Positions 3,615 through 33,989 of a stretch of DNA of 35,026 nt are shown piece after piece (the first letter of the stretch is position 1; the number at the start of each line of letters is the position of its first letter). Under the pieces are notes generated by a model, which made no database searches, was not told the origin of the DNA, and saw only the letters and a list, made by a program, of their open reading frames with translations. The DNA is from Alphaproteobacteria bacterium (lineage in GTDB: Bacteria; Pseudomonadota; Alphaproteobacteria; UBA2136; UBA6156), in contig JAIXXE010000176.1 in the NCBI GenBank assembly GCA_027490875.1, positions 1 to 35,026 of the forward strand, in the 5' to 3' direction. The position numbers and the translations under genes are program-made.

Positions 3615-3636
3615 AAAAAGGTTAACGGGTCGTTAA

Positions 3637-11180: not shown

Positions 11181-11190
11181 GCCAATAAAC

Positions 11191-12719: not shown

Positions 12720-12761
12720 AAACCCCTTACACTGGGGCATATTCTAGGCTATAAGCAGCCT

Positions 12762-16118: not shown

Positions 16119-16120
16119 GG

Positions 16121-16730: not shown

Positions 16731-16791
16731 GCGGGGGCTATGCCCCCTGCACACCCCTTTGGGTAAATTTTCCTTCGGAAAAATGGTGGGC
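16731..16791. repeat. att-scar repeat unit 1 (flank repeat plus 8 nt of the tRNA 3' end)
   Basis: GGGGGCTATGCCCCC hairpin, then AATTTTCCTTCGGAAAAATGGTGGGC (16766-16791), identical to 16907-16932. It ends in TGGTGGGC, the reverse complement of the tRNA 3' terminus GCCCACCA. Confidence 0.6.
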
Positions 16792-16872
16792 GGCACAGTG
16801 CTGGCAGCACATCTCTACACGCCTCCTGTGCGCTTACGCGCACCGGCTAACTTCTCGCAACTCCTGACATCT

Positions 16873-16961
16873 GCAGGGGGTAAACCCCCTGTACCCCCCT
16901 CTGGTGAATTTTCCTTCGGAAAAATGGTGGGCCAAGTAAGACTCGAACTTACGACCCCTGC
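16873..16961. repeat. att-scar repeat unit 2 (flank repeat plus 37-nt exact copy of the tRNA-Ile 3' part)
   Basis: 16925-16961 (TGGTGGGCCAAGTAAGACTCGAACTTACGACCCCTGC) is identical to 17017-17053 of the intact tRNA gene. It is preceded by the same flank as unit 1: a CAGGGGGTAAACCCCCTG hairpin, then AATTTTCCTTCGGAAAAA. Confidence 0.8.
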
Positions 16962-17016
16962 CTTGCACCAAAGGTGCAGAACTGAAAGCAATAACGCAGA
17001 GGGCCTTAAACTGGAA

Positions 17017-17093
17017 TGGTGGGCCAAGTAAGACTCGAACTTACGACCCCTGCGTTATCAACACAGTGCTCTAACCAACTGAGCTATTAGCCC
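17017..17093 (-). tRNA. tRNA-Ile (anticodon GAT)
   Basis: Folded by hand from the reverse strand. Acceptor GGGCTAA/TTGGCCC, D arm GCTC-AGTTGGTTA-GAGC, anticodon arm CTGTG-TTGATAA-CGCAG (GAT at 34-36). Variable loop GGGTC, T arm GTAAG-TTCGAGT-CTTAC, discriminator A, encoded CCA. 77 nt. Confidence 0.85.
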
Positions 17094-17130
17094 CACCAAG
17101 CCTGCCTATAGGGGGCAAGCAAGGGCGTTG

Positions 17131-20711: not shown

Positions 20712-21239
20712 TTAAGCCTGTGGCTGTTCGGCTGGGGCTTCCGGTGTTGCGGCAGCAGCAGTGTCGGCTTCGGCCTTGGCAGCAGCTTCAGCGGCAGCCT
20801 TGGCTTCAGCAGCGGCGGCAGCTTTGGCTTCGGCCTCGGCAACGGCCTTGGCTTCGGCGGCGGCCTTGGCTTCGGCTTCAGCGGCGGCGGCGGCCTTCAG
20901 GGCTTCGCCATGGGCTTTGCCAGCAGCAACCACACCTGCGGTTTTAATACGGCGGGTTTTTACTTTAATGAAGGCATTCCGCACGGCTTCGGGGCCAACG
21001 TTATGCTTTACCAGCAGGCGGGCCACCACATCGGTAACCTGCGCGCCCACGCCAACCCAGTAGGTGAGGCGTTCTTCGTTCAGGTTAAAGGGTACTTCGG
21101 CCCCACGGGCCTTGGGGGCATAAAAGCCCAAGCGTTCAATAAACTTTTTATCGCGGCTGGCGCGGCTGTCGGCAGCAACGATGCTATAGATAGGGAGGCT
21201 CTTGCGACCACCACGGGCCAGACGAATTTTAACGGCCAT
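20712..21239 (-). CDS. rpsP: 30S ribosomal protein S16 with Ala/Glu/Lys-rich C-terminal extension
   Basis: MAVKIRLARGGRKSLPIYSIVAADSRASRDKKFIERLGFYAP ... then about 70 aa of AAEAKAAAEA low complexity. Confidence 0.9.
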   Translation of the reverse strand: MAVKIRLARGGRKSLPIYSIVAADSRASRDKKFIERLGFYAPKARGAEVPFNLNEERLTYWVGVGAQVTDVVARLLVKHNVGPEAVRNAFIKVKTRRIKTAGVVAAGKAHGEALKAAAAAEAEAKAAAEAKAVAEAEAKAAAAAEAKAAAEAAAKAEADTAAAATPEAPAEQPQA

Positions 21240-21483
21240 TGTTTTGGCTTTCTCTTTAATCTATTACGCCACTTTATTAAAGTGACTTCCCCAAGGAACG
21301 GGGCCATCCCAAGGTTTGGAATGGAGGCACGGGGCTGGGGAATTCCAGCGCAGTGCAAGGCCCATGTAGCAAGCCACGCCAGCCTTGGCAAGGGTTTTAG
21401 CGCATCATGGGGGAATTGAACGGTATGGATAGAAGTACTTTTTGGGTGTTTATATATAAAAAGAATAACTTAAACGAATTTTC

Positions 21484-21512
21484 TTGACAGCCTGAAACAA
21501 GCAGGCTAGGGT
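21484..21512 (+). promoter_or_regulatory. sigma70-type promoter candidate with operator-like palindrome in the spacer
   Basis: TTGACA (21484-21489), a 17-bp spacer, then TAGGGT (21507-21512). An AT-rich tract lies upstream (21443-21483). The spacer is filled by the inverted repeat AGCCTG-N7-CAGGCT (21489-21507). Confidence 0.45.
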
Positions 21513-21535
21513 TCTTTCATCCTTGCAGAACTGTG

Positions 21536-21561
21536 CCGCCCCTTGAGGCGGATTTTTTATT
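21536..21561 (+). terminator. terminator-like hairpin plus T-tract between the promoter and the first cluster gene
   Basis: CCGCC (21536-21540), loop CCTTGA, GGCGG (21547-21551), then ATTTTTTATT. The stem is only 5 bp, so it is weak on its own. Confidence 0.4.
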
Positions 21562-21579
21562 CTAGGAAAGCCCCCCACC

Positions 21580-21852
21580 ATGGATGACCCTGGTTCCACC
21601 ACGCAGTTGGCGCGGCGCTTGGCCGACATCGATGACGCCATGTGGTTACGCGCCAGAGAAGGCGACGTGGCCGCTGCCAAGCTGGTGTATGCCCGCTTGG
21701 CCGAAGCCTTACCGCCACCAACACCCCCCTTGCCGCCAAGTTGGGATGCCCTGCTGACGCTGCTGCGGCAGGTTGAACATCATCATAAGGAGATAGAACG
21801 CCATGGCCTTTTGGTTAACGCTGCTAACGTGGGTGCTGGCCCGACTGGATGA
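21580..21852 (+). CDS. hypothetical small protein in the small-terminase position
   Basis: 90 aa. Its stop overlaps the TerL ATG (ATGA at 21849-21852). Helical N-terminus with a Pro-rich middle. The assignment is by position only. Confidence 0.5.
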   Translation: MDDPGSTTQLARRLADIDDAMWLRAREGDVAAAKLVYARLAEALPPPTPPLPPSWDALLTLLRQVEHHHKEIERHGLLVNAANVGAGPTG

Positions 21853-23297
21853 ATGGCGGCTGCGCGCGCCAGCCCCTAAAAATCCTCGGGCCCCGAACCG
21901 GAACTGCCGGGGTGACTAACCAACCAGCCACCACGGCACTGCTCCACCTTTGGGAAGCCCTTCAACTCTGGCAGGCTAGTCTGGGGGGCTGGTATTGCCC
22001 GCACAGTCGTCAGCAGGCCTTTCATGCCGCCGGCAGTGTGGCGCACGAGCGGCTCTTTCTTGCGGGCAACCGGGTGGGGAAGACTTTGGCCGGTGCCGCC
22101 GAGGTGGCCTTTCACCTCAGCGGGGCCTACCCCCCGTGGTGGCAAGGGGTACGGTTTAGTCAACCCGTTCAGGCTTGGGCGGCTTCGGTCACGCGGGAAG
22201 TGACGCGCGATATCTTGCAAGCCACCTACCTTGGGGGCCCAGCGGGCAACCCACGCGGCGTGATTGAGCCCGTGCGGCTGGTCGCGCAGCGGCACAAGGG
22301 CGGGGGGGCAGTGGATGTGGTGAGTGTGCGGCACCATTCGGGCGGGCTTTCGGTGCTTGGCTTTAAAAGCTTCGACCAAGGCCGGGCCAGCTTTCAGGGC
22401 ACCGCGCGGCACGTGATTCATCTGGATGAAGAACCCCCGTTGGAGGTGTATCAAGAAGCCTTGCTGCGGACTCTCACCCTGCAAGGGCACCTGCTGCTAA
22501 CGATGACGCCGCTGATGGGCCTAACCCCGTTGCTAACCCATTACCTTGGCAATGCTGGCGCTACCACGCGGGCGGGGAAGGCGGTGATTCGTGCAGGGTG
22601 GGCCGATACCTTTCACCTTAACAGCGCAGCCCAAGCAAGGTTGCGTGCCAGCTTACCACCCCACGAACTGGCGGCCCGCGAACACGGGGAAATTCGGGCA
22701 GCGCAGGGTTTGGTCTACCCGTTAGCCGAAGCCGACGTGGCGGTGCCACGGTTCGCAATTCCGGCTGGTTGGCGCCGTATCGTGGGCGTGGATTTTGGCT
22801 ACGTTGCCCCCACAGCAGCCGTATGGTTGGCCCACGATACCGCCACCGATACCGTGTATGTGACCGATACCTACGCCGTGGCCGAGCAAACCCCCGCCAC
22901 GCATGCGGCCGCAATTCTGGCGCACGGGGGTTGGCCCGCGGTATGCGACCCGGCCGGGCAAGCGGCCAGCCAACGCGACGGACTTAGCCTGATTGAACTG
23001 TACGCCGAGGCCGGGCTGCATTTTACCCTGGCCAACAACACGGTTGAATACGGCCTGATGGTGATGCTGGAGCGGTTGCGCGCGGGGACTTTAAAAGTCT
23101 TTGCCGATCTGCCCGATTGGTGGGCCGAATACCGGCTTTATCGGCGCGACAGCAAAGGCCGCGTGGTGAAGCAAGATGACCACCTGATGGATGCCACCCG
23201 CTACGCCTTGGTAAGCCTGTCGCTGGCCCGTGCTGAGAAGGAAGCCCGCAGCCTGCCAAGGCCGCGCGGCCACGCGGGCGACTGGCGCACGGTTTAG
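21849..23297 (+). CDS. phage terminase large subunit
   Basis: 482 aa. Walker A-like LAGNRVGKTLAGA, Walker B-like VIHLDEEP, and a C-terminal nuclease-like region (VGVDFGY ... DDHLMDATRYAL) typical of TerL. Confidence 0.85.
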   Translation: MNGGCARQPLKILGPRTGTAGVTNQPATTALLHLWEALQLWQASLGGWYCPHSRQQAFHAAGSVAHERLFLAGNRVGKTLAGAAEVAFHLSGAYPPWWQGVRFSQPVQAWAASVTREVTRDILQATYLGGPAGNPRGVIEPVRLVAQRHKGGGAVDVVSVRHHSGGLSVLGFKSFDQGRASFQGTARHVIHLDEEPPLEVYQEALLRTLTLQGHLLLTMTPLMGLTPLLTHYLGNAGATTRAGKAVIRAGWADTFHLNSAAQARLRASLPPHELAAREHGEIRAAQGLVYPLAEADVAVPRFAIPAGWRRIVGVDFGYVAPTAAVWLAHDTATDTVYVTDTYAVAEQTPATHAAAILAHGGWPAVCDPAGQAASQRDGLSLIELYAEAGLHFTLANNTVEYGLMVMLERLRAGTLKVFADLPDWWAEYRLYRRDSKGRVVKQDDHLMDATRYALVSLSLARAEKEARSLPRPRGHAGDWRTV

Positions 23298-23342
23298 CTC
23301 TTCTGCATCCCCACCCTGAAACATTTAAGAAAGTAAGCCCGC

Positions 23343-23666
23343 ATGAGCACGTTGACACAGACCCATATCTATACCAGCGCCGGTCGGCAGCGCCCGGTCA
23401 TCCTGCCCAGCAGCGGCACCGCGCGCTTTGTCTTGCAACTTCTGCCCGGCGATAGCGGGGTGATGCAGACCACGTGTGACCCCCCGGAACAATTAAAGCG
23501 GGGCACCGCCATCTGGGAGGACTATCAGGGTGGCATTGAAGGGGCCGTTGGCGACGTAACGGCGGTGAGGGCTGTGCTGGGTCACAACAGCGGCTGGGCC
23601 AAATTGGTGGTCCAGCATCAGGGGGATAAAGGGTTGGTACCGATGAATCAAGCAGGAGCACAATAG
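23343..23666 (+). CDS. hypothetical protein (between terminase and portal)
   Basis: A 107-aa ORF that is co-directional and tightly packed; its stop lies 2 nt before the portal ATG. No family recognised. Confidence 0.5.
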   Translation: MSTLTQTHIYTSAGRQRPVILPSSGTARFVLQLLPGDSGVMQTTCDPPEQLKRGTAIWEDYQGGIEGAVGDVTAVRAVLGHNSGWAKLVVQHQGDKGLVPMNQAGAQ

Positions 23667-23668
23667 CC

Positions 23669-25219
23669 ATGGACCCAACCGAACTGTTAACCCGTGCCCG
23701 CAGCCTGTACGAGGCAGCTGTGCAATCCCAAGCCTATACCCATTGGCAAGAGGAAGCCCGACTGGCGTGGGATTTTTACGACGGCCAGCAATGGGCACCC
23801 GAAGAAGTGGCGCGTTTGGCGGAGCTAGGGCAGCCCGCGATCGTGATTAACAAGATTGCCGCAAAAATTGATAATGTGGCCGGTACCGAAGTGGCAGGCC
23901 GGACGCGACTGGCCTACCGCAGCCGCAGCGGGGTAAAGCAAGAAGAACAGGCCGCCCGTGTCTTAACCGAGCTGTTAAGCTACACCGCCGAGCGCACCGA
24001 CCTGCCGCAGGAAATCAGTTACGCCTTTCGGGCAGGGTTGGTCAGCGGCATCGGCTGGTTGGAAATGGGGCAAGACCAAGCCGTGTTTGTGAAGGCCGAA
24101 GATGACCTGGCCGTGGTGTGGGACCCATGGGCCCGCGCGCCCGATTTAAGCGACGCCCGCTTTGTGGCGCGTACGCGGTGGCTGGACGGCGACGCGGTGG
24201 GCGTACTGTTCCCCGACCACGCCGCCAAGGTGTTAAGCGCCCTGCGCACGCAGGGCCTTAAGGGCCCCTACAGTCAACGCGGGGAAGGGCTGCTAGGCAG
24301 CCAAGGAGTACGCTACTACGACGAACGCAACGAACTGTATCGGGTAGTAGAGGTGCAGTTAAAACGGGCCGTTAAGCAGTGGCAAGTTCAGTTGCTGAGT
24401 GGCCAGATTCGGGGCTTTACCAGCCGTACCGAAGCCCGTGCCATGGCCCAAACCCCGGGCGCGCAGCTGTTGCCTCAGCAGTATATGACACAGGTGCAGG
24501 TGGTGTACTATGCGGGCGAAGTCTTGCTCCATCAGCAAACCCTGCCGAGCGAGGAGTTTACGCTGCTGCCCTACGTGTACAAACGCCACAAAGCCGATGG
24601 CCGCCCTTATGGGCTGGTGCGTGCGGCCATCGACCCCCAACGGGAGCTTAACAAACGCCGCAGCAAAGCCATGCACCTGCTCAACACCGTGCAGGTAATT
24701 GCCGACATCGACGCGGTGGACGACCCAGCCCTGTTGGCGCGGGAAGCCGCGCGCCCCGATGGGTTAATTCTGAAACGTGCGGGCAAGGATTTACGCATCA
24801 TCCGCAACGCCGATTTGGCGGCCAGCCAAGTGGCGGTGATGGAACAGGCTGGTCGGGATATTCAGGATGTTTTGGGTGTGTTCGATGAAGCCATGGGCAA
24901 GGAAAGCAACGCCCAAAGTGGGCGGGCCATTCAGCAGCGCCAGCTGGCGGGCACCTTAAATCAAATGTTTGCCTTCGATGCGCTGCGGCGGATGAAGAAG
25001 CGCCTCGGCGTTCAGTTGCTTACGTTGCTACGCCAAAGCCTTACGCCGACACAGGTGCTGCGTATTACCGACGACCTGACTGCCGCACGGCTCTTTGCGC
25101 AAGGCGCTAATAACCTTCAAGCCAGCTTTGACGTGGTGGTGGAAGAGGTACGCGACGCCCTTTCGGCCCGCGATGCAGCCATTATTGAAGCCCAACGGCC
25201 TGACTTGCTGGGGGCTTAA
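23669..25219 (+). CDS. phage portal protein (P22-like type)
   Basis: 516 aa. N-terminal WQEEARLAWDFYDGQQW motif, comparable to P22 gp1 [21 protein letters not shown]. AGGAG RBS upstream. Sits between TerL and the scaffold. Confidence 0.8.
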   Translation: MDPTELLTRARSLYEAAVQSQAYTHWQEEARLAWDFYDGQQWAPEEVARLAELGQPAIVINKIAAKIDNVAGTEVAGRTRLAYRSRSGVKQEEQAARVLTELLSYTAERTDLPQEISYAFRAGLVSGIGWLEMGQDQAVFVKAEDDLAVVWDPWARAPDLSDARFVARTRWLDGDAVGVLFPDHAAKVLSALRTQGLKGPYSQRGEGLLGSQGVRYYDERNELYRVVEVQLKRAVKQWQVQLLSGQIRGFTSRTEARAMAQTPGAQLLPQQYMTQVQVVYYAGEVLLHQQTLPSEEFTLLPYVYKRHKADGRPYGLVRAAIDPQRELNKRRSKAMHLLNTVQVIADIDAVDDPALLAREAARPDGLILKRAGKDLRIIRNADLAASQVAVMEQAGRDIQDVLGVFDEAMGKESNAQSGRAIQQRQLAGTLNQMFAFDALRRMKKRLGVQLLTLLRQSLTPTQVLRITDDLTAARLFAQGANNLQASFDVVVEEVRDALSARDAAIIEAQRPDLLGA

Positions 25220-25265
25220 GCCTTCACCCGTTAACAACGATTCTTAAAAAAGGAAGCAAACAGAT

Positions 25266-25844
25266 ATGTTCCCCTTCAAAAAGCATGCCGTACAGCCAGC
25301 CCAAACGCCGCTGAACGAAAAGCTACAGGAAATTCGCACCCAGCTAACCCAGCTGAACGACGGTGCAAAAAAAGTTGGTGGCGAGCAGGCGACGTTGAGT
25401 GACGATGCCCCGCTCCCGGCTGACAAACGCGCAGCGATTGCGCGCGACGAAACCCTCATCCGCACGGCCTTGCAAACTGTGGGCATCGATTACGACGCCC
25501 TGATTGCAACGCCTTCGCAAGAAGGTACACCTTCGCCCTATGCCTTGGCGGTGCAGGCCAACCCGGCACTGCTGCAAGATGTTCTGGGTGCTCCAACGCC
25601 CGCGTTAAAGGCCTTGGAAGTGGCGGTAAACTTTAAACCCTACGCCGAGTTCTCGGCCAAATATGGCCACGAACCAGCCGCGATTAAGGCTGCAATTCGG
25701 GCCGAAGTGCTGGCCGAAAACCCAGCCGCACCCGAAGCCCCAGAAGCGGCAACGCCCACGCTGCCCTTCAGCCGCATCCGTGGTGGCAGCAAGGCTGCAC
25801 CGGCTAAGCCCAAGGGCACCTTGAACGAGGTGTTTCGTTCCTAG
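25266..25844 (+). CDS. scaffolding protein candidate
   Basis: 192 aa, helical and Ala/Glu/Pro-rich, lying between portal and major capsid genes. Called from position and composition only. Confidence 0.55.
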   Translation: MFPFKKHAVQPAQTPLNEKLQEIRTQLTQLNDGAKKVGGEQATLSDDAPLPADKRAAIARDETLIRTALQTVGIDYDALIATPSQEGTPSPYALAVQANPALLQDVLGAPTPALKALEVAVNFKPYAEFSAKYGHEPAAIKAAIRAEVLAENPAAPEAPEAATPTLPFSRIRGGSKAAPAKPKGTLNEVFRS

Positions 25845-25889
25845 ACGCACGCGCTGCGTCCCCAAGCAACCAACCGAAAGGGTCAGGCT

Positions 25890-26927
25890 ATGCCAGCAGG
25901 CGTACCAACCATCGAAACCACCCACGGCGTAACGGCCGAAGCGTGGAGTAACGAGGTCTTCAGCGAGTACCTCAGTCAAAACCCGTTCTTCAACTTTATG
26001 GGGACGAGTTCGCATAATATCATCCAGGTGAAGGAAGAACTGACCAAACAACCCGGCGATGCCATTACCGTTCAACTGCGTGGCCGCCTAACCGGCAACG
26101 GGGTGAGTGGCATCACCAAACTAAAAGGCAGCGAAGAAGACCTGGTGTTCTACGACCAGCGCCTGCTGGTCGATACCATCCGCCACGGCGTAATGCTGCG
26201 CGGCGAAATGAGCCTGCAGCGCGTGGCGTTCGATCTGCGCAACCAAGCCCGTGAAGCCTTGGTGGATTGGGCGACCGAAAAGCTGCGGCGCGACCTCATC
26301 ACGGCGCTGACCAACACGGCCATTGGCCGCGTGCGGGCGCGTTACCTGTATGGCATCAGCGATGCCAACTGGCATGCCACCCATGCCACTGCCTTGGCGA
26401 ACGTGGATAACACCAACGACCGCCTGACCACCGCCCAAATCAGCCGCGCCAAACGCAAGGCACTGCTGGAAGGCGACCGCAAGGTGCGGCCGTTTGTGGT
26501 GAAGCAGGGCAACAAGGTGGAAGAGGTGTTTGTGCTCTTTGCGCACCCATTGGCGGTGCGGGACTTGTTGGCCGACGCCGACTTTAAGGCGCTTAACACC
26601 TACATCCCCACCACGCTGGGCGACAGCGTACTGGTGCACGGCCAACGCTACAAGGGCATGTGGGATGGCGTGATGATCTACGAAACCGAAATGCCGTTGC
26701 TGCCAACCGCCGGTGCGGGTGGCATTCAGGTGGCGCATGGCCTGCTTTGTGGGGCGCAAGCCGCCGCAGTGGCCTGGGGCAAGCGCACCAACTACAAGGA
26801 AGACCTGGATGACTACGGCCACGAAAATGGCTTCGCCATCGATGAAATCCGCGGCGTCAACAAACTGGTGTTCAACAATGCCGACCACGGCGTGGTGAAC
26901 ATCTTCAGTGCTGCGGTTGCCGACTAA
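25890..26927 (+). CDS. major capsid protein (N4-gp56 family type)
   Basis: 345 aa. AEAWSNEVFSEYLSQNPFFNFMGTSSHNIIQVKEELTKQPGDAITVQLRGRLTGNGVSG ... LVFYDQRLLVDTIRHGV matches my recollection of the N4-gp56 capsid family N-terminal pattern. Confidence 0.8.
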   Translation: MPAGVPTIETTHGVTAEAWSNEVFSEYLSQNPFFNFMGTSSHNIIQVKEELTKQPGDAITVQLRGRLTGNGVSGITKLKGSEEDLVFYDQRLLVDTIRHGVMLRGEMSLQRVAFDLRNQAREALVDWATEKLRRDLITALTNTAIGRVRARYLYGISDANWHATHATALANVDNTNDRLTTAQISRAKRKALLEGDRKVRPFVVKQGNKVEEVFVLFAHPLAVRDLLADADFKALNTYIPTTLGDSVLVHGQRYKGMWDGVMIYETEMPLLPTAGAGGIQVAHGLLCGAQAAAVAWGKRTNYKEDLDDYGHENGFAIDEIRGVNKLVFNNADHGVVNIFSAAVAD

Positions 26928-26965
26928 AACCCCGCTGAACACTGACTTAAGACCGGTTACATATC

Positions 26966-26998
26966 CCAGGGGGGCCAAATGGCCCCCCTGGCAATTTT
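26966..26998 (+). terminator. strong hairpin terminator immediately after the capsid gene
   Basis: An 11-bp perfect stem CCAGGGGGGCC / GGCCCCCCTGG (26966-26976 / 26981-26991), loop AAAT, then CAATTTT. Confidence 0.7.
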
Positions 26999-27015
26999 AA
27001 GAAAGGCAGCTACCG

Positions 27016-27642
27016 ATGCAAGTAAACACGATTCGCGACCGGATTGTTGAACTTTCGCACCAAAGCAGTACCGATGGCGACGTACGCAGCAAGGCTCTCA
27101 ACTGGCTGAATGCGGCGTATCTGGAAGCCCTGAATGAACTGCTGCTGTTGGCACCCCAAAGCCTGCAACGACGGGAAAGCGTGAACACCGACAGCACCGG
27201 CCAAGCCACCCTCAGCACGCCCCCACACGCCCTTGTTAAAGTGCTGTGGGGAGAGGTGCCCCTGCCGGTGGTAACCCCCTTGGCTCTGCTGGAGGCCGAC
27301 CCCCTTGGCACCTTGCAAGGCAACCCTGCCATGGCCTGCCCAACCGCCACAGGCGTTCAAGTGCAGCCCCGCAAGGCAGGGGCAGCCTTGGTGGTCTACA
27401 CCCCACGCCCGGTGCCCCTGGCTGAAGATGGGCCGGAGAGCAGCATTCTCATTCCACCCGCCTTTCACGACGCCCTGATTTGGGGTGGGTTGGTCTGGAG
27501 CGCGCTGTTTGAGCGGGGCCTCGGCAGTGCGGCGGAGTTACAGCTTTTTAGCCGCCAATGGGCCGAAGCCAAAACCCGCCTTAAGCTGAACCTTTTGGGG
27601 CAGGCAGGTGTACCCTTACGCGTACAAGCAGGAGACTACTAA
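27016..27642 (+). CDS. head-tail adaptor / tail-proximal protein candidate
   Basis: 208 aa. First gene after the capsid, in the position and size range of P22 gp4 or T7 gp11. No motif recognised. Confidence 0.45.
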   Translation: MQVNTIRDRIVELSHQSSTDGDVRSKALNWLNAAYLEALNELLLLAPQSLQRRESVNTDSTGQATLSTPPHALVKVLWGEVPLPVVTPLALLEADPLGTLQGNPAMACPTATGVQVQPRKAGAALVVYTPRPVPLAEDGPESSILIPPAFHDALIWGGLVWSALFERGLGSAAELQLFSRQWAEAKTRLKLNLLGQAGVPLRVQAGDY

Positions 27643-27644
27643 CC

Positions 27645-29390
27645 ATGCGCGATGACTTGCAAGAGCGTTTCTATCCCTTTCCGACCAACCTGATGGCGAC
27701 CGCCCAAAGTGCCTTGGCGCTGCCCGCGACCTACGCGCGCGAACTTACCAACATGCTGCTCGGCCCCGATGGCAGCGGCACCAAACGCCACGGCGTTACG
27801 CCGTTGGGGAGCCCAATCGATACCGAGACCATCACCGCACTGATGACCTTTGTTCACTTGGGCACCACCCAACTGCTGGCGGGCACCGATGCCGGCAAGG
27901 TGTATCGGCAAAACGGCAGCAGCTGGGTGATGCTCTGGAGCGGCCTTAACCCGCTGGCCCCGCTGCAGTGGGTGTTGTTCGGCGGGCGTTTGGTGCTGGC
28001 CAATGGGGTTGACCCTTTGCTGCAGTACGACGGCGTAAGCCTCAGTGTTGTTGAACGCCTGGTGCGCGACAGCGGCGCCAACTTAACCCTGCTGGCGGCC
28101 AACCAATTACGGCTTGAAAGCCAAGCCACACTTTACGCTGTGGGCAGTACGGTAAGGGTGCGGGTCAACGGTAACGACCTACTCGCGACCGTGCAAAGCA
28201 GCACGCAAGCTGGCGCGCAAACCACGGTCACACTTACGGCCAATGTGTTGGTAACGCCCCTAAGTGACGTATGGTTTACCGTGCGCCCCCCGACATTTGC
28301 GCAGTTGGCCGTGGCGCACGACCGACTGTGGGGTTTTGGGGCAGGGGGCTTAGGCCCTACCTTGGGCAGCAGCCCAGACCGGTTACGGGTGTATTACACT
28401 CACGGCGTGAACGACCCGACCGCGTGGCCCGACCCAGCCACCGGTATCATCCCAAGCCTCAACCTTGCCGATAAGGCTGGCGTGGCCGACGAACTGCTGG
28501 CAATGCGGGTGAAGGATGGCTTAACCGTGTTTTTAGGGCGTACCCAATTGCAGCTGTGGGAAGGCCGCACCCCCGGCACCGCGGGTGGGTTAAGTACCGA
28601 CTTTGCCTGGGTAAAAACGCTGCCTGTTGGGTTGGTGCACCCCAACGCAGTGCTGGATTTACCCAACGACCTGTTGCTGCTAACCCCTTTGGGGGCGCGC
28701 ACGCTTGCTCGCACGGTGCAAACCGAGCAGCTGGATCTGGCCGATGTAGGGCGGGCACTGGACCCAACCTTGCAAGCCCGTATAACGCAGCTGCAGGCCA
28801 ACCCCGCCGCTTATCGGCGAATGCAGGCCTTTCATTACCCGGCGCAACAATGGTTTGCGTGGGGGTTTGAAACGGAGACCCTCATTTGGCAACTGGCGGC
28901 CAGCGGCGGTGGTTGGGCCCGCTTTACCGGCGCCTTTGGCGGCTTGACCGCCGCCCATACCACGGCAGCCGGCGTGGTCTTTATCGCCAAAGGTAACCAG
29001 GTGATGCAGTACAACCCCACGGTGGCCGACGACAGCGGCGACCCCATCTCCACCCGCTGGTGGCTGCCGTGGTTAAGCCCAGGGGGTACGCGCCGCTGGG
29101 CCAACAAGTACGTGGAAGTTTTGGCAGTTGCGCAGGCCGTGCAACCGATTACGCTGGAACGCACCACCGACCTTGACGACGGTAACCCGCGCCTGATTGC
29201 GCTGGAGCTACCAGCCCCGCCCGACTACTGGGATACCGCCAGCTGGGATAGCGCCCTGTTCGACAACGCCAGCGCCCCGCCCGCCCGCGTGCGCGACCAT
29301 TGCGTCGCCCACCATCTGGCGCTGGCGGTGGTGAGCAATCACACGCAGCCGCTGCGTCTGCTGGGCCTAAAACTTCACGGCATCACGTAA
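27645..29390 (+). CDS. tail hub/nozzle-type structural protein candidate
   Basis: 581 aa. AGGAG RBS, with the start 2 nt after the previous stop. Beta-rich composition. In the position of P22 gp10 or T7 gp12. Called by position only. Confidence 0.45.
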   Translation: MRDDLQERFYPFPTNLMATAQSALALPATYARELTNMLLGPDGSGTKRHGVTPLGSPIDTETITALMTFVHLGTTQLLAGTDAGKVYRQNGSSWVMLWSGLNPLAPLQWVLFGGRLVLANGVDPLLQYDGVSLSVVERLVRDSGANLTLLAANQLRLESQATLYAVGSTVRVRVNGNDLLATVQSSTQAGAQTTVTLTANVLVTPLSDVWFTVRPPTFAQLAVAHDRLWGFGAGGLGPTLGSSPDRLRVYYTHGVNDPTAWPDPATGIIPSLNLADKAGVADELLAMRVKDGLTVFLGRTQLQLWEGRTPGTAGGLSTDFAWVKTLPVGLVHPNAVLDLPNDLLLLTPLGARTLARTVQTEQLDLADVGRALDPTLQARITQLQANPAAYRRMQAFHYPAQQWFAWGFETETLIWQLAASGGGWARFTGAFGGLTAAHTTAAGVVFIAKGNQVMQYNPTVADDSGDPISTRWWLPWLSPGGTRRWANKYVEVLAVAQAVQPITLERTTDLDDGNPRLIALELPAPPDYWDTASWDSALFDNASAPPARVRDHCVAHHLALAVVSNHTQPLRLLGLKLHGIT

Positions 29391-29411
29391 CATCAACAGA
29401 AAGAAACCCTC

Positions 29412-30713
29412 ATGGGCACCAAATATCAACGCCCCAGCGGCGCCTATGCTGGTCAGGCAGCCTTGGGCAACCGCACCAAGTATAGCGATGACAGCACCGC
29501 CACCCCTCGGCGTGCCATTTCCAGCCAGAAGATGGACGGCGACCTTAACTACCTGATTGACGCCGTGAACGGGCTGGATGATGCCAGCGGCAGCCGCACC
29601 AGTATTGCCGAGCGGCTGGATGTAAGCCTGAATGCCGACGGCACCCTTAAAGTCAGCGTGGCTGGCGCACTGGATGAGTTTGTGGTGCATCAAAGCCCTG
29701 GTAGCATTGCACGTAGCGATAACTCTACGTTCACCATGGCGGGCGGCGACTTCCGCAACCTTTACTCCGTCAATCGCCGTGTTCGCGTGGTGGTAGCGGG
29801 GCAGCCTTTGGTGGGCGATGTGGCTAGCTGCAGCTTTGGCAGCGGCCTGACTACGGTCTCGTTGGTTGACCTGACCGATACCAGCGGCAATTTGGGCATC
29901 ATAGCCGCAGCACCTACCCAGGTGGCCTATGGGCCGTTAACGCCAGGCAGCCGGGGGAACATGCCGCGCCGTACCGATGGGCTTACCTTTACTGTCGGCA
30001 GCAATACGGTAGCGTGCAATAACGAATCAGGCAGCTTGGCCTTTCGGCATAATGGCTCCCTGGTGGCCACGATAGGGTCAGGAGGGCTCAGTGGGTTGGC
30101 TGCCGGGAGCGTGAGCCCCGCCGCCCTGCAAGCCGCGGTGGCCGAGGCCCTTAACCCCGTAGGCGTGATACAAACCTATGCGGGTAATAATGCTCCTGCG
30201 GGCTGGCAGCTGTGTGCAGGGCAGGCACTCTCGCGCACCACCTTTGCGGCCCTGTTCACCGTACTTGGCACCACCTACGGGGCAGGCGATGGCAGCACGA
30301 CCTTTAACCTGCCCGACCTGCGCGGCCGCACCACCTTTGGGCTCGATAACATGGGCGGCACCGACGCCGGTCGCCTTAACACCACCAACACACTGGGGTT
30401 AGCAGGGGGGGCGCAGCTTAAAACCCTGACCAGCGATACCGTAACCTTAAGCGTGGCCAACCTGCCCAGCCACAACCACGCCACCACCATCGACAGCAAT
30501 CTGACCAGTGGCCACGGGACCGATACGGGCGGCTTGGCCCAGAGTATCCAGAACGGCACCTTCGGTTCGGACTACAACCTTGGTGGCACCAGCGGCACGC
30601 CCACACTCTTCCCCACCGCCAACAGTGGCAGCGGCACCGCCTTTACCGTGACCGATACCAACGTCGACTTCATGCCACCCTTCCTGCACCTTAACTACAT
30701 TATTAAGGTTTAG
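29412..30713 (+). CDS. tail fibre protein with phage tail-collar domain
   Basis: 433 aa. The collar-domain signature GVIQTYAGNNAPAGWQLCAGQALSRTTFAALFTVLGTTYGAGDGSTTFNLPDLRGRT and a Gly/Thr-rich C-terminus. Confidence 0.8.
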   Translation: MGTKYQRPSGAYAGQAALGNRTKYSDDSTATPRRAISSQKMDGDLNYLIDAVNGLDDASGSRTSIAERLDVSLNADGTLKVSVAGALDEFVVHQSPGSIARSDNSTFTMAGGDFRNLYSVNRRVRVVVAGQPLVGDVASCSFGSGLTTVSLVDLTDTSGNLGIIAAAPTQVAYGPLTPGSRGNMPRRTDGLTFTVGSNTVACNNESGSLAFRHNGSLVATIGSGGLSGLAAGSVSPAALQAAVAEALNPVGVIQTYAGNNAPAGWQLCAGQALSRTTFAALFTVLGTTYGAGDGSTTFNLPDLRGRTTFGLDNMGGTDAGRLNTTNTLGLAGGAQLKTLTSDTVTLSVANLPSHNHATTIDSNLTSGHGTDTGGLAQSIQNGTFGSDYNLGGTSGTPTLFPTANSGSGTAFTVTDTNVDFMPPFLHLNYIIKV

Positions 30714-30717
30714 GGGC

Positions 30718-31206
30718 ATGAACGAACCCAGCTCTCAACGTACGCCAAACCTCATCCCGCTCGCCGAAGCCGACTGGCCCGCGCTGCATCAGCTCATGTG
30801 CACGCGGCGCTTTCCGCATGTACCTGCCAGCTACCTTAAAGCAAGGCCGCAGTTTCGCAGCGCCACCTTGCTGGGGCTAAAACAGCGCCAGCAGCTGGTG
30901 GCGGCCTTTGTGTTTGGGCCGCCCGAAAATGGCGTGGCGTTTTTCGATGCCATCTGCCGCCAAGGTATGGCAGGGCGTTGGGCCACGCGCCCGTTACTTA
31001 GGCGGCTGTTTGGGGTGGCGTTTCAGCCTGCGCCCGTGGGCCTTGGCCTGCGGGCAGTGTGGGTGCAGCCGCATGGCCCTACCGCCTTAAAAGCCTGCCT
31101 GCAAGCGGGGTTTCAGGCCGTCACGCCGCTGCGTGGCAGCCGCGAGGCCCCGGTGTTGGTGCTAACACCCCATACTGTGTCGTCAATCATGCAAGGAAAG
31201 TTCTAG
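30718..31206 (+). CDS. hypothetical protein (weak GNAT-like C-terminal pattern, or fibre accessory)
   Basis: 162 aa, starting 4 nt after the fibre stop. ...RQGMAGRWATRPLLRRLFGVAF...GLRAVWVQPHGPTALKACLQAGFQAV loosely resembles GNAT motifs A/B, but the Q/R-x-x-G-x-G/A loop is not intact. Confidence 0.4.
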   Translation: MNEPSSQRTPNLIPLAEADWPALHQLMCTRRFPHVPASYLKARPQFRSATLLGLKQRQQLVAAFVFGPPENGVAFFDAICRQGMAGRWATRPLLRRLFGVAFQPAPVGLGLRAVWVQPHGPTALKACLQAGFQAVTPLRGSREAPVLVLTPHTVSSIMQGKF

Positions 31207-31209
31207 CCT

Positions 31210-31986
31210 ATGGGAAGCCTCTTTAAACCAAAGCAACCAGCCCCGCCGCCACCCGCACCGCCCGTTTTGGTGCGCGACGAAGTGAACGGCGTGGAGCAAG
31301 TGCCCATCACCGATGCCAACGGTGCGACCACCTATGTTACGCGCCCAATTGCCCTCACGCCCCAGCAGCAGGCCGAGCGCGACGAGATTAACCGCATCGT
31401 CAGCGACAGCCTGACCGAAATTAACCGCCTTTCCCGAACCGACTACGCCCCCGATACCACCACCCAAAAGGTGCTGGATGATTGGCAGGCCCGCCAAGAG
31501 CAGCTGTTGGCCGAAGGCAACCAACGGCGCAGCCAGCAGGAAGAAGAACGGCTGGCCCAACGCGGGCTGGCCGACAGCACCGCCGCGCAAGGCGTACGTC
31601 GGCAGCGGGCGCTGGATGAACAGGATTCGCGCAGCACTGTGGGGCTGGCCCGCACCGAGCTGGCCAACCAAATCCGTGGCGAACGGCTGGCCCTGCAACA
31701 GAACCTGTTCAACACCGCCAGCGGGCTGAAGGATGCCAGCCAAGCCCGCACCGCCCGTGCGGCTACAGCAGGGCTTGGCGATGCCGTGGCGCTCAATGCC
31801 CAACGCCAGGCCAGCCTGCTGGATTACTACAATTCCGCCAATCGCAGCAACGGCAGCGTGTTTGCCGATGCCTTGGGCCGCAGCGCAGGCAACACAGTCG
31901 GCCGCACCGTTGGTGGTGCCATCGGCGGCCCGTTGGGCAGCGGCGTTGGCAGCCTGTTGGGCAGTTGGCTGTTTGGTCGGCGTTAA
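31210..31986 (+). CDS. virion internal/ejection protein candidate with C-terminal glycine zipper
   Basis: 258 aa. MGSLFKPKQPAPPPPAPP N-terminus, a Gln/Arg-rich coiled-coil middle, and the C-terminus GRTVGGAIGGPLGSGVGSLLGSWLFGRR. Confidence 0.45.
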   Translation: MGSLFKPKQPAPPPPAPPVLVRDEVNGVEQVPITDANGATTYVTRPIALTPQQQAERDEINRIVSDSLTEINRLSRTDYAPDTTTQKVLDDWQARQEQLLAEGNQRRSQQEEERLAQRGLADSTAAQGVRRQRALDEQDSRSTVGLARTELANQIRGERLALQQNLFNTASGLKDASQARTARAATAGLGDAVALNAQRQASLLDYYNSANRSNGSVFADALGRSAGNTVGRTVGGAIGGPLGSGVGSLLGSWLFGRR

Positions 31987-32014
31987 TGCTCATTGAAATA
32001 GGAAAGCGAACCGG

Positions 32015-32383
32015 ATGAATCACCAAGCAGTACAAAACTGGCTCGACCAAGAATTTCTCCCTTGGCAGGCCAAAGCACGCAGTTACGCCGCCGAAAAGCA
32101 AGCCCTGCAGCAACGGTTGCGGCAACAGCTCCCCGCCCTCCAAACTCTGGTTGGGCTGTTGCTGGAAGGCCAAACCAAACGGGCCGTCATGGCCTGGAAC
32201 AGCCTGGGGCTTGAACCCCTGCTGGCCGAAATTGTGCTGAACCGTACCGGCACCGAAGTTATGCTGAGGGCCAAAGGCGGCAGGACCGAAGTGGTGAACC
32301 TCGATGAGGTCATCGCCACGTTACAGCAGTTAAGCCGCGACCCTGTGGCTACTCCTTTGCCTGAGCCAGCAACCGCGCCTTAA
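32015..32383 (+). CDS. hypothetical protein
   Basis: A 122-aa ORF with a GGAAAG RBS. It is the last + strand gene before the lysis cassette, and its 3' end overlaps the convergent minus-strand gene by 35 nt. Confidence 0.5.
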   Translation: MNHQAVQNWLDQEFLPWQAKARSYAAEKQALQQRLRQQLPALQTLVGLLLEGQTKRAVMAWNSLGLEPLLAEIVLNRTGTEVMLRAKGGRTEVVNLDEVIATLQQLSRDPVATPLPEPATAP

Positions 32384-32912
32384 TATCTTCGGCCAACTTA
32401 CGGTCAGATTCAGGATTGTGCCGTTCTTCCACAATCATGGTGCTCAGCAACGCCTGCCAGTCCTCTTCTTGCGCCTGCGGAAAGATGCGTTGATCGAGGT
32501 ACACTTCCCAAAACAGCGCAACTTCGTTGGCGAGGCGTGGGTCGATGATGCTCTGGCGTTGGTAGCCCAAAATAGCGGTATCGTGCAGCGAGACAATCAC
32601 CTGCTTGCGGGTATGGTAAGCCAGGTTACCGCGGTAGCCACGGCCAAGCACGGGCCCAAGCAATGTGTAGACTTCGTCCTCAGCCTGTATCAGCCCCGGG
32701 GCGCAGCGGGTGTCGTTTGGCACCAGATAGCCAAAGCGGGTAATCAGGTCGGCGGTGGCGGGGGGGAAGTCAAAATCAATCTCATCGCCTTGGCGGGTCA
32801 GCACAATGTTATAGCGCTGGGGCGTTAGAGGGCCGGTGGCCACAGGTTTATCGGTAGGGGTGGTCAGTTCTTTAAGTTCCTTGACCGAAGTTTTGCCAGA
32901 CATACCGTTCAT
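32349..32912 (-). CDS. hypothetical protein, the only reverse-strand gene in the cluster
   Basis: The track ORF begins at 32990, but its first 26 codons are Cys/Phe-rich and overlap the lysis promoter region. Met at 32912 (MNGMSGKTS...) or 32903 is more plausible, giving about 184-187 aa. No family recognised. Confidence 0.5.
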   Translation of the reverse strand: MNGMSGKTSVKELKELTTPTDKPVATGPLTPQRYNIVLTRQGDEIDFDFPPATADLITRFGYLVPNDTRCAPGLIQAEDEVYTLLGPVLGRGYRGNLAYHTRKQVIVSLHDTAILGYQRQSIIDPRLANEVALFWEVYLDQRIFPQAQEEDWQALLSTMIVEERHNPESDRKLAEDIKARLLAQAKE

Positions 32913-32942
32913 CTTAAGGAAATCACACCCGCAAGGCAACCC

Positions 32943-32971
32943 TTGACACCGCGCAAAGTGGTAAAATAAGC
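32943..32971 (+). promoter_or_regulatory. promoter candidate for the lysis cassette (extended -10)
   Basis: TGGTAAAAT at 32959-32967 fits the extended -10 pattern TGnTATAAT. TTGACA at 32943-32948 is only 13 bp upstream of TAAAAT. Alternatively, TTGACA-17 bp-ATAAGC (32966-32971) could serve. Confidence 0.45.
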
Positions 32972-32988
32972 ACAGAAAGGAAGCACGC

Positions 32989-33159
32989 ATGGAACTCGAC
33001 GTGATCGTGTCAGAACTCCGCGCCCTGCGCGAAGACTTACAGGGTATCCGTAACGATATACAACACTACCAAGGCTTTGTGGGCGGCGTGGCTTGGGTGG
33101 TTGGCGGCGTGGCCGCCGTTGCCAGCTTTGCCTTCAGCTGGCTGCAGGAGGTCATCTAA
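32989..33159 (+). CDS. small single-TM protein (holin/antiholin/spanin-like), not in the ORF track
   Basis: Hand translation gives MELDVIVSELRALREDLQGIRNDIQHYQGFVGGVAWVVGGVAAVASFAFSWLQEVI (56 aa). AAGGAAG RBS 5 nt upstream. Its stop overlaps the amidase ATG as TAATG (33157-33161). Confidence 0.6.
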   Translation: MELDVIVSELRALREDLQGIRNDIQHYQGFVGGVAWVVGGVAAVASFAFSWLQEVI

Positions 33160-33572
33160 TGCCCCCCCCAATTGCGTCCTCAATTGCCCCACCCATGCGC
33201 CGTATCACCCGGCATATCATTCATTGCAGCGCCTCTACCTTTGGCGATGTGGCCGAAATCCGCCGTTGGCATCTGGCCCGCGGCTGGCGGGATATTGGCT
33301 ACCACTTTGTCATTCGGCGTGATGGTGAGGTTGAAGTAGGCCGGATGCTGCCAGAAATTGGCGCCCATTGCGAAGGCTTCAACCGCGACAGTATCGGCAC
33401 CTGCCTGATTGGCGACCAAACCTTCACCGAGGCGCAGTTTACCACCTTGCGCCGCGTGCACGCGTTGCTCTGCCAGCAGTTCCCCGGGCTTACGGCCCAT
33501 GGTCACCGGGACTTCAACCCCCACAAAACCTGCCCCAACTTTCAGGTTTCAACTGTTCTAGGAAAGGCTTAA
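33159..33572 (+). CDS. N-acetylmuramoyl-L-alanine amidase endolysin (T7-lysozyme/PGRP type)
   Basis: ITRHIIHCSAS...WHLARGWRDIGYHFVIRRDGEVEVGR...GAHCEGFNRDSIGTCLIGD...AHGHRDFNPHKTCPNF is the Amidase_2 pattern. I place the start at ATG 33159 (AGGAGG RBS at 33146-33151) rather than the track start at 33093. Confidence 0.85.
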   Translation: MPPPIASSIAPPMRRITRHIIHCSASTFGDVAEIRRWHLARGWRDIGYHFVIRRDGEVEVGRMLPEIGAHCEGFNRDSIGTCLIGDQTFTEAQFTTLRRVHALLCQQFPGLTAHGHRDFNPHKTCPNFQVSTVLGKA

Positions 33573-33575
33573 CAC

Positions 33576-33989
33576 ATGCTGAACTTGGCAAAACCCATGC
33601 TCGGGGCGCTGGCCGATGTGCTGCTTTCCCGCAAGGCCGAGCTGGCCCAACAGACGGGCCTGCCGGAAGACGCAGTCGGGAAGGTCAGCGCCGCGGTCAG
33701 CGAGTTCCTGACCCGCGACGAACGTGCGGCCAGCGCCGTCATGGCGGAAGTTGAAAAGGCCCGCAGCCACGATGTGGCGTTGGCCGATAACGCCCCACCG
33801 CTGGTACAACTGCTGCGGGGGCTGGTACGGCCGATTATAACCCTCGCAGCATGTTTTTGGTATATCGGGGCACGGCTCTATGGTATCCCGCTGGGCCCAG
33901 AAGATTATGCCATCATAGGGGGTATCATGGCGTTCTGGTTCGGCTTTCGGCCTTTTGAAAAGGGGTTGGAGTCGCGCCTGCGCCCCTAG
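33576..33989 (+). CDS. 3-TM holin of the GTA-release type (DUF3154-like)
   Basis: 137 aa. Soluble helical N-terminal half, then hydrophobic segments (LVRPIITLAACFWYIGARLYG, YAIIGGIMAFWFGF). It starts 3 nt after the amidase stop. The family assignment is from memory of the layout. Confidence 0.6.
   Translation: MLNLAKPMLGALADVLLSRKAELAQQTGLPEDAVGKVSAAVSEFLTRDERAASAVMAEVEKARSHDVALADNAPPLVQLLRGLVRPIITLAACFWYIGARLYGIPLGPEDYAIIGGIMAFWFGFRPFEKGLESRLRP

Follow-up and report, generated by a model that had tools for sequence, protein, structure and literature searches.

A conserved chromosomal cluster of podovirus-type packaging, structural and lysis genes in uncultured Alphaproteobacteria, and its likeness to gene transfer agents

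Gene content and borders of the cluster

The present analysis concerns a cluster of 16 phage-type genes lying between rpsP and popZ in a 35,026-nt stretch of DNA from an uncultured alphaproteobacterium (GTDB lineage UBA2136; UBA6156), namely positions 1 to 35,026 of contig JAIXXE010000176.1 in assembly GCA_027490875.1; this whole stretch is called the window below, and loci homologous to the cluster are referred to by L numbers. Tiling of open reading frames (ORFs) shows all 16 genes (21580–33989; a cluster of ~12.5 kb) to be intact, with gaps of 1–88 nt and start/stop overlaps at 21849 (ATGA) and 33157–33161 (TAATG), confirming what a first, sequence-only reading of the window had proposed. 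Taken together, they are the complete late module of a short-tailed phage, covering packaging, head, tail and lysis. The genes, g01 to g16, are as follows, preceded by the promoter and terminator predicted upstream of them.

21484..21512, + strand: predicted sigma-70-type promoter, recognised by its sequence, with −35 TTGACA at 21484–21489, a 17-nt spacer and −10 TAGGGT at 21507–21512
21536..21558, + strand: predicted intrinsic terminator in the leader, with the hairpin CCGCC-CCTTGA-GGCGG at 21536–21551 and a U6 run at 21553–21558, 22 nt before the g01 ATG (21580)
21580..21852, + strand: g01, short small-terminase-like protein (TerS), 90 aa, with no helix-turn-helix (HTH) at its N-terminus; overlaps the TerL start (ATGA)
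21849..23297, + strand: g02, large terminase (TerL); PF03237, PF17289, phrog_2/5653
23343..23666, + strand: g03, conserved 107-aa protein between TerL and portal; orthologues at the same position in relatives
23669..25219, + strand: g04, P22-type portal; PF16510 (P22_portal) E 7e-96, phrog_156 E 3.6e-97
25266..25844, + strand: g05, probable scaffolding protein, so assigned because it lies between portal and capsid and is retained in all loci
25890..26927, + strand: g06, major capsid protein of the N4-gp56 / PF13252 family; PF13252 E 1.3e-42, phrog_334 E 4e-63
27016..27642, + strand: g07, head-to-tail adaptor (SU10_adaptor), T7 gp11 counterpart by position; PF24175 E 3.1e-9
27645..29390, + strand: g08, tail tube / nozzle protein, T7 gp12-like; tblastn to Megaira phage gp12, phrog_5107
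29412..30713, + strand: g09, tail fibre with a collar domain; PF07484 E 4.3e-24, many tail-fibre PHROGs
30718..31206, + strand: g10, conserved unknown, candidate internal or ejection protein; order kept in all loci
31210..31986, + strand: g11, conserved unknown with a coiled-coil region and a glycine-zipper C-terminus, candidate internal/ejection protein; order conserved
32015..32383, + strand: g12, conserved unknown; order conserved
32349..32903, − strand: g13, orphan protein specific to the cluster; relatives 61–84% identical
32989..33159, + strand: g14, 56 aa, one C-terminal transmembrane segment, lysis accessory or holin-like; directly before the amidase and kept in relatives
33159..33572, + strand: g15, N-acetylmuramoyl-L-alanine amidase (endolysin), 137 aa; Amidase_2 PF01510 E 2.5e-15, phrog_822 E 1.3e-42
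33576..33989, + strand: g16, membrane protein whose C-terminus has two hydrophobic helices, probable holin by its sequence; weak phrog_6637 match

Profile searches were made with Pfam and PHROGs, and the ten cluster ORFs without a Pfam match were also run against NCBIfam, which returned nothing for them. Profile and tblastn matches show that the genes for virion head, tail and DNA packaging are all encoded (TerL, portal, capsid, adaptor, nozzle and fibre), and they uphold the order previously read from the sequence, i.e., TerL, portal, scaffold-like protein, N4-gp56-type capsid, a tail-proximal pair, collar fibre and lysis genes, the scaffold being assigned by position; the small ORF at the head of that order proved to be an N-terminally shortened TerS. 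The TerL sequence displays a Walker A motif (GNRVGKT), a Walker B motif (HLDEE) and the nuclease Asp residues. The capsid gene, g06, is the most conserved of the cluster, at 65–92% identity across the clade; its homologues are labelled 'N4-gp56 family' by JGI, and its profile matches the solved capsids of podophages (9vye at 1.9e-62, also 7eel and 8h89). No tape measure or tail-tube family was found in the cluster, and g08 returned nothing from PDB sequences, either as a single sequence or as a profile. The C-terminal half of the g09 fibre is swapped in distant relatives, so that only the N-terminal 28–48% aligns in L009, L012, L014, L017, L018, L022 and L024. Genes g03, g05, g10 and g12 have no family match in Pfam, PHROGs or NCBIfam, and the sole family signal of g11 is a faint Gly-zipper match.

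The final gene had been likened to the three-transmembrane holin family of gene transfer agents (GTAs). Its product is indeed a membrane protein and a probable holin, the C-terminus of its orthologues being invariant and rich in W, F and G, but PF11351 (GTA_holin_3TM) gave faint, non-significant matches to 3 of 13 orthologues (best E 0.07) and none to the window g16 at E ≤ 1. The reverse-strand unknown, g13, is present as described but is most likely 184 aa long (32349–32903) and not 213 aa. It runs against the direction of the operon, between the structural and the lysis genes, and is the second most conserved gene of the cluster. Its family comprises 123 proteins, 51–100% identical, which are found only in this cluster and have no outside relatives. 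An AlphaFold2 (AF2) model of g13 has a predicted local distance difference test (pLDDT) score of 88; a PDB sequence search came back empty, and the model has no fold match in PDB or BFVD. The DNA between g13 and g14 (32904–32988) contains TTGACA at 32943–32948 together with CGCAA(C/G) motifs that recur in relatives; the lysis genes may have a promoter or operator of their own here.

No integrase, repressor, replication or recombination gene had been recognised in the cluster by eye, and Pfam and PHROGs likewise gave zero matches to such families among its ORFs. From left to right the window carries fliL, fliM, lnt, corC, metK, dnaX, ybaB, recR, ydjC, tRNA-Ile, lpxC, dnaN, rpsU, rimM, rpsP, the cluster and then popZ (DUF2497), its right border gene. 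The claim of housekeeping flanks without a border repeat stands for both the rpsP and the popZ side: no direct repeat of at least 11 nt joins the two borders, and there is no att-like repeat. The composition of the cluster was said to be host-like, which is true of codon preferences (relative synonymous codon usage, RSCU, r = 0.95), but the cluster is significantly richer in GC than host genes, with a third-position GC content (GC3) of 0.69 vs 0.64 (P = 0.002).

Some features of the flanking DNA may be recorded here. Three consecutive minus-strand ORFs (651, 357 and 131 aa) at 9225–12740, between metK and dnaX, have no Pfam match. GC falls to 0.51–0.53 at 15500–17100, a region containing ydjC, two small unknown ORFs and tRNA-Ile(GAT). 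RpsP (20712–21239, minus strand) has a C-terminal tail of ~90 aa rich in Ala, Glu and Lys, with 12-nt periodic repeats in its gene.

Promoter, leader terminator and candidate regulator

The conserved elements of the cluster extend to its non-coding leader. Across 12 loci covering all subclades, TTGAC of the −35 and TA of the −10 are invariant at a spacing of 17–18 nt, and a CACAACTT/CCAAACT-like element occupies the −35/−10 spacer of several loci. Between this promoter and the first gene, 16 loci possess a hairpin followed by a run of U6–8, with predicted folding energies (dG) of −8.4 to −19.3 kcal/mol; the stem sequences are unrelated among the 16 loci, and compensatory changes are seen between close ones. 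The first gene begins 15–40 nt past the hairpin and U-run, whatever lies upstream of the promoter, and in the rearranged clade typified by L088 (see below) the same promoter-hairpin cassette precedes the scaffold gene. Since rpsP is transcribed away from the cluster, the leader hairpin of the window cannot be the rpsP terminator. The leader matches no RNA family in Rfam, where the tRNA-Ile gene was the sole match. The order of promoter, intrinsic terminator and late operon, as in a lambdoid Q-type cassette, can be read in the window, and it points to processive antitermination, or at least to regulated read-through.

A small protein family, u215, could provide the late-gene regulator, or could merely be a host neighbour. 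In the ancestral arrangement of the locus its gene is placed between ybjQ and the cluster promoter (L093 3649–4353, L089 7365–7910, L014 4892–5422, and others). The family is lineage-specific, with 36 proteins of ~160–230 aa, and has an HTH resembling region 4 of sigma-70 (a Sigma70_r4_2 match, 5.2e-6 in one member, several members carrying a precomputed PF08281); the predicted model has a pLDDT of 84. Rearrangements have repeatedly parted u215 from the cluster, and the gene could therefore go with the ybjQ side instead. No antiterminator of the Q, AlpA or GafZ family was found in the window.

Control by CtrA was considered and rejected, as all three full CtrA boxes of the window fall within the flagellar/lnt region, and the cluster has none nearby. 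The boxes themselves (TTAA-N7-TTAA, at 3611–3636 and 5063–5077) occur in or beside intergenic DNA, and the three seen compare with an expected 0.18.

Distribution, chromosomal site and selection

There are 429 homologues of the capsid protein, 98 of which form a continuous series at 65–92% identity, the next ones being at ≤56%. Several of the 98 are on contigs of 0.36–1.36 Mb and so are chromosomal there. In a scan of one genome per GTDB species, the capsid gene was present in 23 alphaproteobacterial metagenome-assembled genomes (MAGs), from ponds, lakes, groundwater, wastewater and ocean; one carrier defines the GTDB genus UBA6156, and one UBA6156 MAG amounts to 1.47 Mb at 88% completeness. 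The 16-gene order, including the reversed g13, is common to every locus long enough to judge by tblastn with all window proteins, and in eight further contigs gene calls and Pfam labels gave only housekeeping neighbours around the capsid gene. Housekeeping genes make up the flanks of the window and of more than 10 relatives, and no integrase or replication gene was found in any relative's flank examined. A strain-specific element bounded by att sites had been considered at the outset; what was found is the same order in 23 species-level genomes, with no att repeats.

The flanks of the relatives indicate where the cluster originally resided. Its left neighbour is GGDEF-u83-ybjQ-u215, whole or in part, in L008, L009, L014, L017, L022, L023, L061, L089 and L093 (GGDEF, ybjQ and u215 being all three together in four of these nine loci), and its right neighbour is popZ in the window and in L003, L005, L006, L008, L012, L021, L089, L092, L093 and L095, with valS next after popZ wherever the sequence reaches that far. 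Flank pairs link the subclades (ybjQ/cluster/popZ in L089 and L093, ybjQ/cluster/other in L014), and since these pairs overlap across subclades the ancestral site can be placed at ybjQ / cluster / popZ-valS. Three later replacements of the left flank are seen: by recO in the L021 group, by asmA in L015 and by rpsP in the window. Judged from these comparisons, the rpsP junction of the window is derived, the result of a later rearrangement. Whether relatives carry the cluster at the same rpsP–popZ locus, as the sequence-only reading had suggested checking, is answered in part: the popZ side recurs, but the ancestral left neighbour is ybjQ, and rpsP is common only to the window and L095, the closest relative examined at that border.

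In L095, a contig of 1.11 Mb from another metagenome, the arrangement is h190-lpxC-dnaN-rpsU-rimM-rpsP / cluster / popZ, both flanks being as in the window, and the rpsP junction is therefore not an accident of assembly. The gene order rpsP-rimM-rpsU-dnaN-lpxC, without trmD/rplS and ffh, is unusual and is common to the two. L095 has, at 5055–5627 between its rpsP and the promoter of the cluster, a 190-aa ORF with its own terminator and with no homologue in the other loci, where the window has 95 bp.

Contigs of 9–15 kb that end near the cluster borders come from many independent assemblies (L001, L002, L024 and L094 among them), which might stem from flanks that differ between strains or from a difference in read depth over the cluster. 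A circular or excised form was rejected, as cluster contigs of 5–15 kb have no terminal overlap.

The small terminase provides a second character that sets the window and L095 apart. In seven subclade representatives the TerS homologues are 133–159 aa long and have an N-terminal HTH segment (G.TQKEIAE.VGVS.RTV.NYLTPEVWEEI), the full-length protein of L093 giving weak matches to DUF5681 and HTH_31. The short TerS of the window (90 aa) and of L095 (92 aa) begin past the HTH and align to the C-terminal part only. As the short form is intact and constrained in both (dN/dS, the ratio of nonsynonymous to synonymous substitution rates, 0.41), it has been kept since the rpsP rearrangement. The TerS of the gene transfer agent RcGTA likewise has no N-terminal domain for DNA binding, a loss that its authors propose makes packaging non-specific and regard as a GTA-type trait (PMC6854486), and the TerS of the window subclade offers a suggestive parallel to it.

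Selection was estimated by the Nei–Gojobori method (NG86) for nine locus pairs and for the window against L095. In the nine pairs, dN/dS is 0.03–0.47 for every measurable gene, with dS ~0.6–3.6 where estimable, values near enough to saturation that the ratios are approximate; a dN/dS below 1, which had been proposed as a check, was thus seen in every measurable gene. Between the window and L095, the cluster genes have dS 0.65–2.0 and dN/dS 0.09–0.45, and the flanking host genes dS 1.07–2.7 and dN/dS 0.01–0.31, from which it follows that the divergence of the cluster is as old as that of its neighbours and has proceeded under a comparable constraint. Protein identities between the two are 90.6% for DnaN, 89.9% for the capsid, 88% for RpsP, 76.8% for TerL, 74.4% for the portal, 63.4% for LpxC and 56.5% for RimM. 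The rpsP junction and the short TerS are already present in both loci, which dates this constraint to after the rearrangement. ValS and cluster identities fall in the same rank order in the four genomes with valS beside popZ, and across eight loci the pairwise identities of five cluster proteins (capsid, TerL, portal, nozzle and adaptor) are correlated with those of YbjQ (Mantel r = 0.61–0.92, p ≤ 0.0013). A prophage that is recently truncated or neutrally decaying is incompatible with dN/dS and co-divergence, even if the ratios are rough, and the recent truncation that the sequence-only reading had put forward as its alternative is rejected on these two grounds and on synteny.

A number of loci depart from the common plan. 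The L088 clade (L088 9100–18000; L020; L019; L096; L099) is deeper, with capsids at 65–67% identity, and occupies another conserved site, map-radC; it has no TerL, g03, fibre or g13 nearby and keeps the promoter-terminator cassette. The idea that its cluster is split between co-regulated loci was rejected: a metagenome scan for the promoter pattern produced four contigs, none with TerL, three being the same map-radC / scaffold-capsid locus and the fourth having no detectable cluster or flank gene. A subclade without the amidase keeps g14 and g16 (L026 17318–17950; L089 16831–17524; L005; L006), and its endolysin may be encoded elsewhere in the genome, as in RcGTA. L091 has two extra genes between amidase and g16 (11411–12342, the same as in L002 and L092), encoding a 126-aa protein and a 200-aa protein with a Phage_Mu_F domain, and L010 and L011 have insertions of 1–2 kb between portal and scaffold.

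Origin, interpretation and comparison with known systems

At the DNA level the block as a whole has no match among phages, and its protein relatives are distant. Cultured phages have capsids of ≤35% identity, and IMG/VR contigs of 36–48 kb have capsids 41–55% and portals 27–33% identical, with no other cluster gene within 10 kb of the capsid/portal. Two IMG/VR entries that are >70% identical are fragments of the chromosomal locus, one of them (L061) including ybjQ. In database searches TerL is 38–44% identical to podophage terminases (44% to that of EBPR podovirus 1) and has many P22-like relatives, a kinship that points to headful packaging. The complete Megaira phage MAnkyphage_25.80 (OP381185, 38.4 kb) has the same late layout, namely a DUF5681 protein, terminase, portal, capsid, gp11, gp12 and collar protein, the DUF5681 gene being two genes upstream of the terminase gene with a resolvase gene between. 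Its genome further encodes modules without counterpart in the cluster, namely a replication initiator, exonuclease/Bet, regulators and a resolvase. Its 'tail tubular protein gp12' is 27% identical to g08 (tblastn, E 2e-14 against the database, 2e-33 pairwise); its gp11-annotated gene, at the position of g07, has no tblastn similarity to g07. The source phage would have mixed a P22-type portal and an N4-gp56-type capsid with a T7 gp12-like nozzle behind a SU10-type adaptor. The earlier proposal of a podovirus-type structural-plus-lysis locus distinct from RcGTA is borne out by the portal (PF16510), the capsid (PF13252) and the absence of a tape measure from the profile matches. The nearest solved capsids were deposited with seven chains, which we read as T=7 and a head with a capacity of ~40 kb.

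It can be held with good confidence that the cluster is a vertically inherited, selectively maintained particle locus. In every respect that a sequence can test it resembles a GTA: gene content, absence of early genes, descent, constraint, GC, an HTH-less TerS and a control that appears to be terminator-based. That it specifies a gene-transfer-type particle under read-through control, working as sketched next, is the reading we favour, with only modest confidence. An ancestor of this uncultured alphaproteobacterial lineage would have captured the late module, which was then inherited vertically and kept functional without genes for replication, integration or immunity. The near-consensus sigma-70 promoter would fire constantly, its transcripts ending at the intrinsic terminator ~25 nt downstream, until a regulator (ancestrally perhaps u215, which is not in the window) lets RNA polymerase read into g01–g12 and the lysis genes. 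Portal, scaffold and capsid would build procapsids, to be filled by TerS and TerL through headful packaging; in the window subclade the HTH-less TerS should allow initiation that is independent of sequence, and so the packaging of host DNA. Adaptor, nozzle, fibre and internal proteins would complete a podovirus-like particle, and g14, the amidase g15 and g16 would lyse the producer cell.

Several points weigh against this reading. Purifying selection would be expected in an active phage too, and with dS near saturation its strength is known approximately. Some copies are damaged: the stretch running from the C-terminus of TerL up to and including the scaffold is missing from L089, and in L015/L090 the portal is truncated and the scaffold and fibre genes are missing. 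In the L088/L020/L096 clade the order is scaffold, capsid, adaptor, nozzle, g10, portal and g11 onward, with neither TerL nor g13 nearby, and the L005/L006/L021/L089 subclade has no amidase. The hairpin of the window is among the weaker ones (5-bp stem, dG −9.3 kcal/mol) and is not better than those of shuffled sequence. As an antiterminator of the Q/AlpA type u215 was rejected, having no PDB sequence match and no significant Foldseek result (best E 0.34), and it is not beside the cluster in three subclades, that of the window included. Finally, the 12.5 kb locus could fit entirely into a T=7 head, and the classical criterion of a GTA being unable to package its own genes is thus not guaranteed.

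A domesticated particle might instead serve another purpose, as a PBSX-type defective phage or killer that packages host DNA but acts mainly by killing or lysing competitors, or as a device for programmed lysis that releases cell contents. This we consider unlikely, though it is the alternative that survives best: synteny, purifying selection and the lack of early genes support it equally, the lysis genes are inside the cluster, the fibre C-terminus has been swapped between lineages as it would be in a targeting device, and the opposite-strand orphan g13 could be an immunity or regulatory factor. However, a full packaging machine (TerS, TerL and portal) has been held under constraint, which is not obviously needed for killing, and the loss of the TerS HTH parallels RcGTA. 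A PBSX-type killer particle and a GTA cannot be told apart from sequence alone.

A slowly decaying defective prophage, persisting by chance or by hitch-hiking with a useful gene such as g13, is very improbable. The damaged or rearranged copies in L089, L015/L090 and the L088 clade and the loss of the amidase in one subclade are what such decay would produce, as are the rearranged left end and shortened TerS of the window, but all 15–16 genes are intact and, after dS of ~1 or more, retain dN/dS of 0.03–0.47, like their housekeeping neighbours. The order is the same in 23 species, the cluster has co-diverged with its host, even the non-coding promoter and terminator are conserved, and 12.5 kb of neutral DNA would not outlast such divergence, least of all in small genomes. 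Least probable of all is a still-mobile element, whether a helper-dependent satellite or a minimal phage-like element that packages itself with adjoining DNA and enters hosts by homologous recombination. In its favour, the inferred T=7-type head could hold the 12.5 kb locus and its flanks, many 9–15 kb contigs end near the cluster borders and two cluster fragments are listed as viral in IMG/VR. Against it, neither an integrase, a replication gene or a primase nor an att site is present, the border-ending contigs are not circular and several have host flanks, the host gene ybjQ is part of the IMG/VR fragment L061, the distances of cluster and host genes correlate, and known satellites borrow virion genes and do not encode the full set.

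Returning to the gene-transfer reading, its fullest form can be offered tentatively, the chances that all of its parts hold together being slightly short of even: an ancient and independent domestication of a podovirus into a GTA-like particle, in uncultured alphaproteobacteria with apparently small genomes, with its own antitermination switch, an orphan protein (g13) and one subclade that has converged on an RcGTA-type TerS. GTAs have been characterised in few systems, and the alphaproteobacterial ones studied, RcGTA with its relatives and BaGTA, either resemble siphoviruses or have another origin. FpGTA of Faecalibacterium prausnitzii, a gut Firmicute that has yielded the sole podovirus-like candidate reported to date, had its packaging of host DNA measured and is described by its authors in a 2026 paper as the first podovirus-like GTA-like element (PMC12946183). 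If the present reading is true, the cluster would be a second, independent case after FpGTA, and the first in the Alphaproteobacteria, where a lineage with genomes of maybe ~1.5 Mb would have kept a podovirus-derived locus through at least family-level divergence. Domestication of phage particles would then be recurrent and not tied to one virion architecture. If the head is T=7-sized, host segments of ~40 kb would be moved, large enough to include the whole locus, and a GTA would no longer be sharply distinct from a self-transducing element. The locus offers parts that can be tested: its small promoter-terminator switch, TerS proteins that form a natural series in which the DNA-recognition domain is present or absent, and the confidently predicted orphan fold of g13. 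For metagenomics, it is relevant that pieces of this chromosomal locus are already being classed as viral contigs by virus-prediction tools.

GTAs of the RcGTA type are HK97/siphovirus-like, and no description of a GTA with a P22-type portal and an N4-gp56-type capsid was found in the literature searched. With RcGTA and CcGTA (Rhodogtaviriformidae) the cluster shares the form of a chromosomal head-tail cluster of ~12–15 kb without replication or integration genes, as well as vertical inheritance, purifying selection and a GC raised over that of the host. The window subclade alone shares with RcGTA a TerS without the N-terminal DNA-binding domain (PMC6854486). In CcGTA, which is controlled through GafYZ by a sigma-70 promoter and terminator, an element located between −35 and −10 serves to load GafZ, which carries the polymerase past the terminator (PMC11150451); the similar control predicted here is read from promoter and hairpin motifs. 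In contrast, no structural gene family is held in common with RcGTA/CcGTA, the cluster having a P22-type portal, a PF13252 capsid, a SU10-type adaptor and a gp12-like nozzle. Its lysis genes are inside the cluster, its terminator comes before the first gene and not after it, no homologue of GafA, GafY or GafZ was identified, and no CtrA box is near the cluster. Judged by its genes, the cluster is not a member of the RcGTA-like family (Rhodogtaviriformidae).

The control region invites comparison with lambdoid PR'-tR'/Q and Pseudomonas AlpA, which likewise have a promoter and then a close intrinsic terminator before the late genes. The lambdoid Q system also shares a conserved element between −35 and −10 and a small regulator gene directly upstream, ancestral u215 standing in the place of Q. 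Unlike those regulators, u215 has no significant similarity in sequence or fold to Q or AlpA, the leader of the window is only ~45 nt, and read-through is here a prediction.

Among phages, the podophages OP381185, EBPR podovirus 1, the Rhizobium RHph podophages and the IMG/VR contigs of 36–48 kb have the same set of DUF5681 (TerS-like) protein, TerL, portal, capsid, gp11, gp12 and collar fibre. The complete ones differ in having genomes of 34–48 kb, with early genes in OP381185. What these phages have in common with the cluster is capsid and portal, to which the Megaira phage adds TerL and nozzle, and none has g13 or g10–g12. From an integrated temperate podophage (a P22/T7-like prophage) the cluster differs in that no integrase, att site, immunity or replication module was found in the window or in the relatives examined. 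It differs from phage satellites, i.e., phage-inducible chromosomal islands (PICIs) and capsid-forming PICIs, in having no integrase, replication/primase module or helper-responsive regulator and in encoding a full virion set. The defective phages of the PBSX type are myovirus-like and belong to Firmicutes; as described, they too are conserved, chromosomally fixed, non-replicating particle loci with their own lysis genes and a dedicated late-gene regulator. FpGTA, to which the cluster is likened by description of its genes, belongs to another phylum and has two operons, but it is likewise podovirus-like and compact, with packaging, structural and lysis genes only (PMC12946183).

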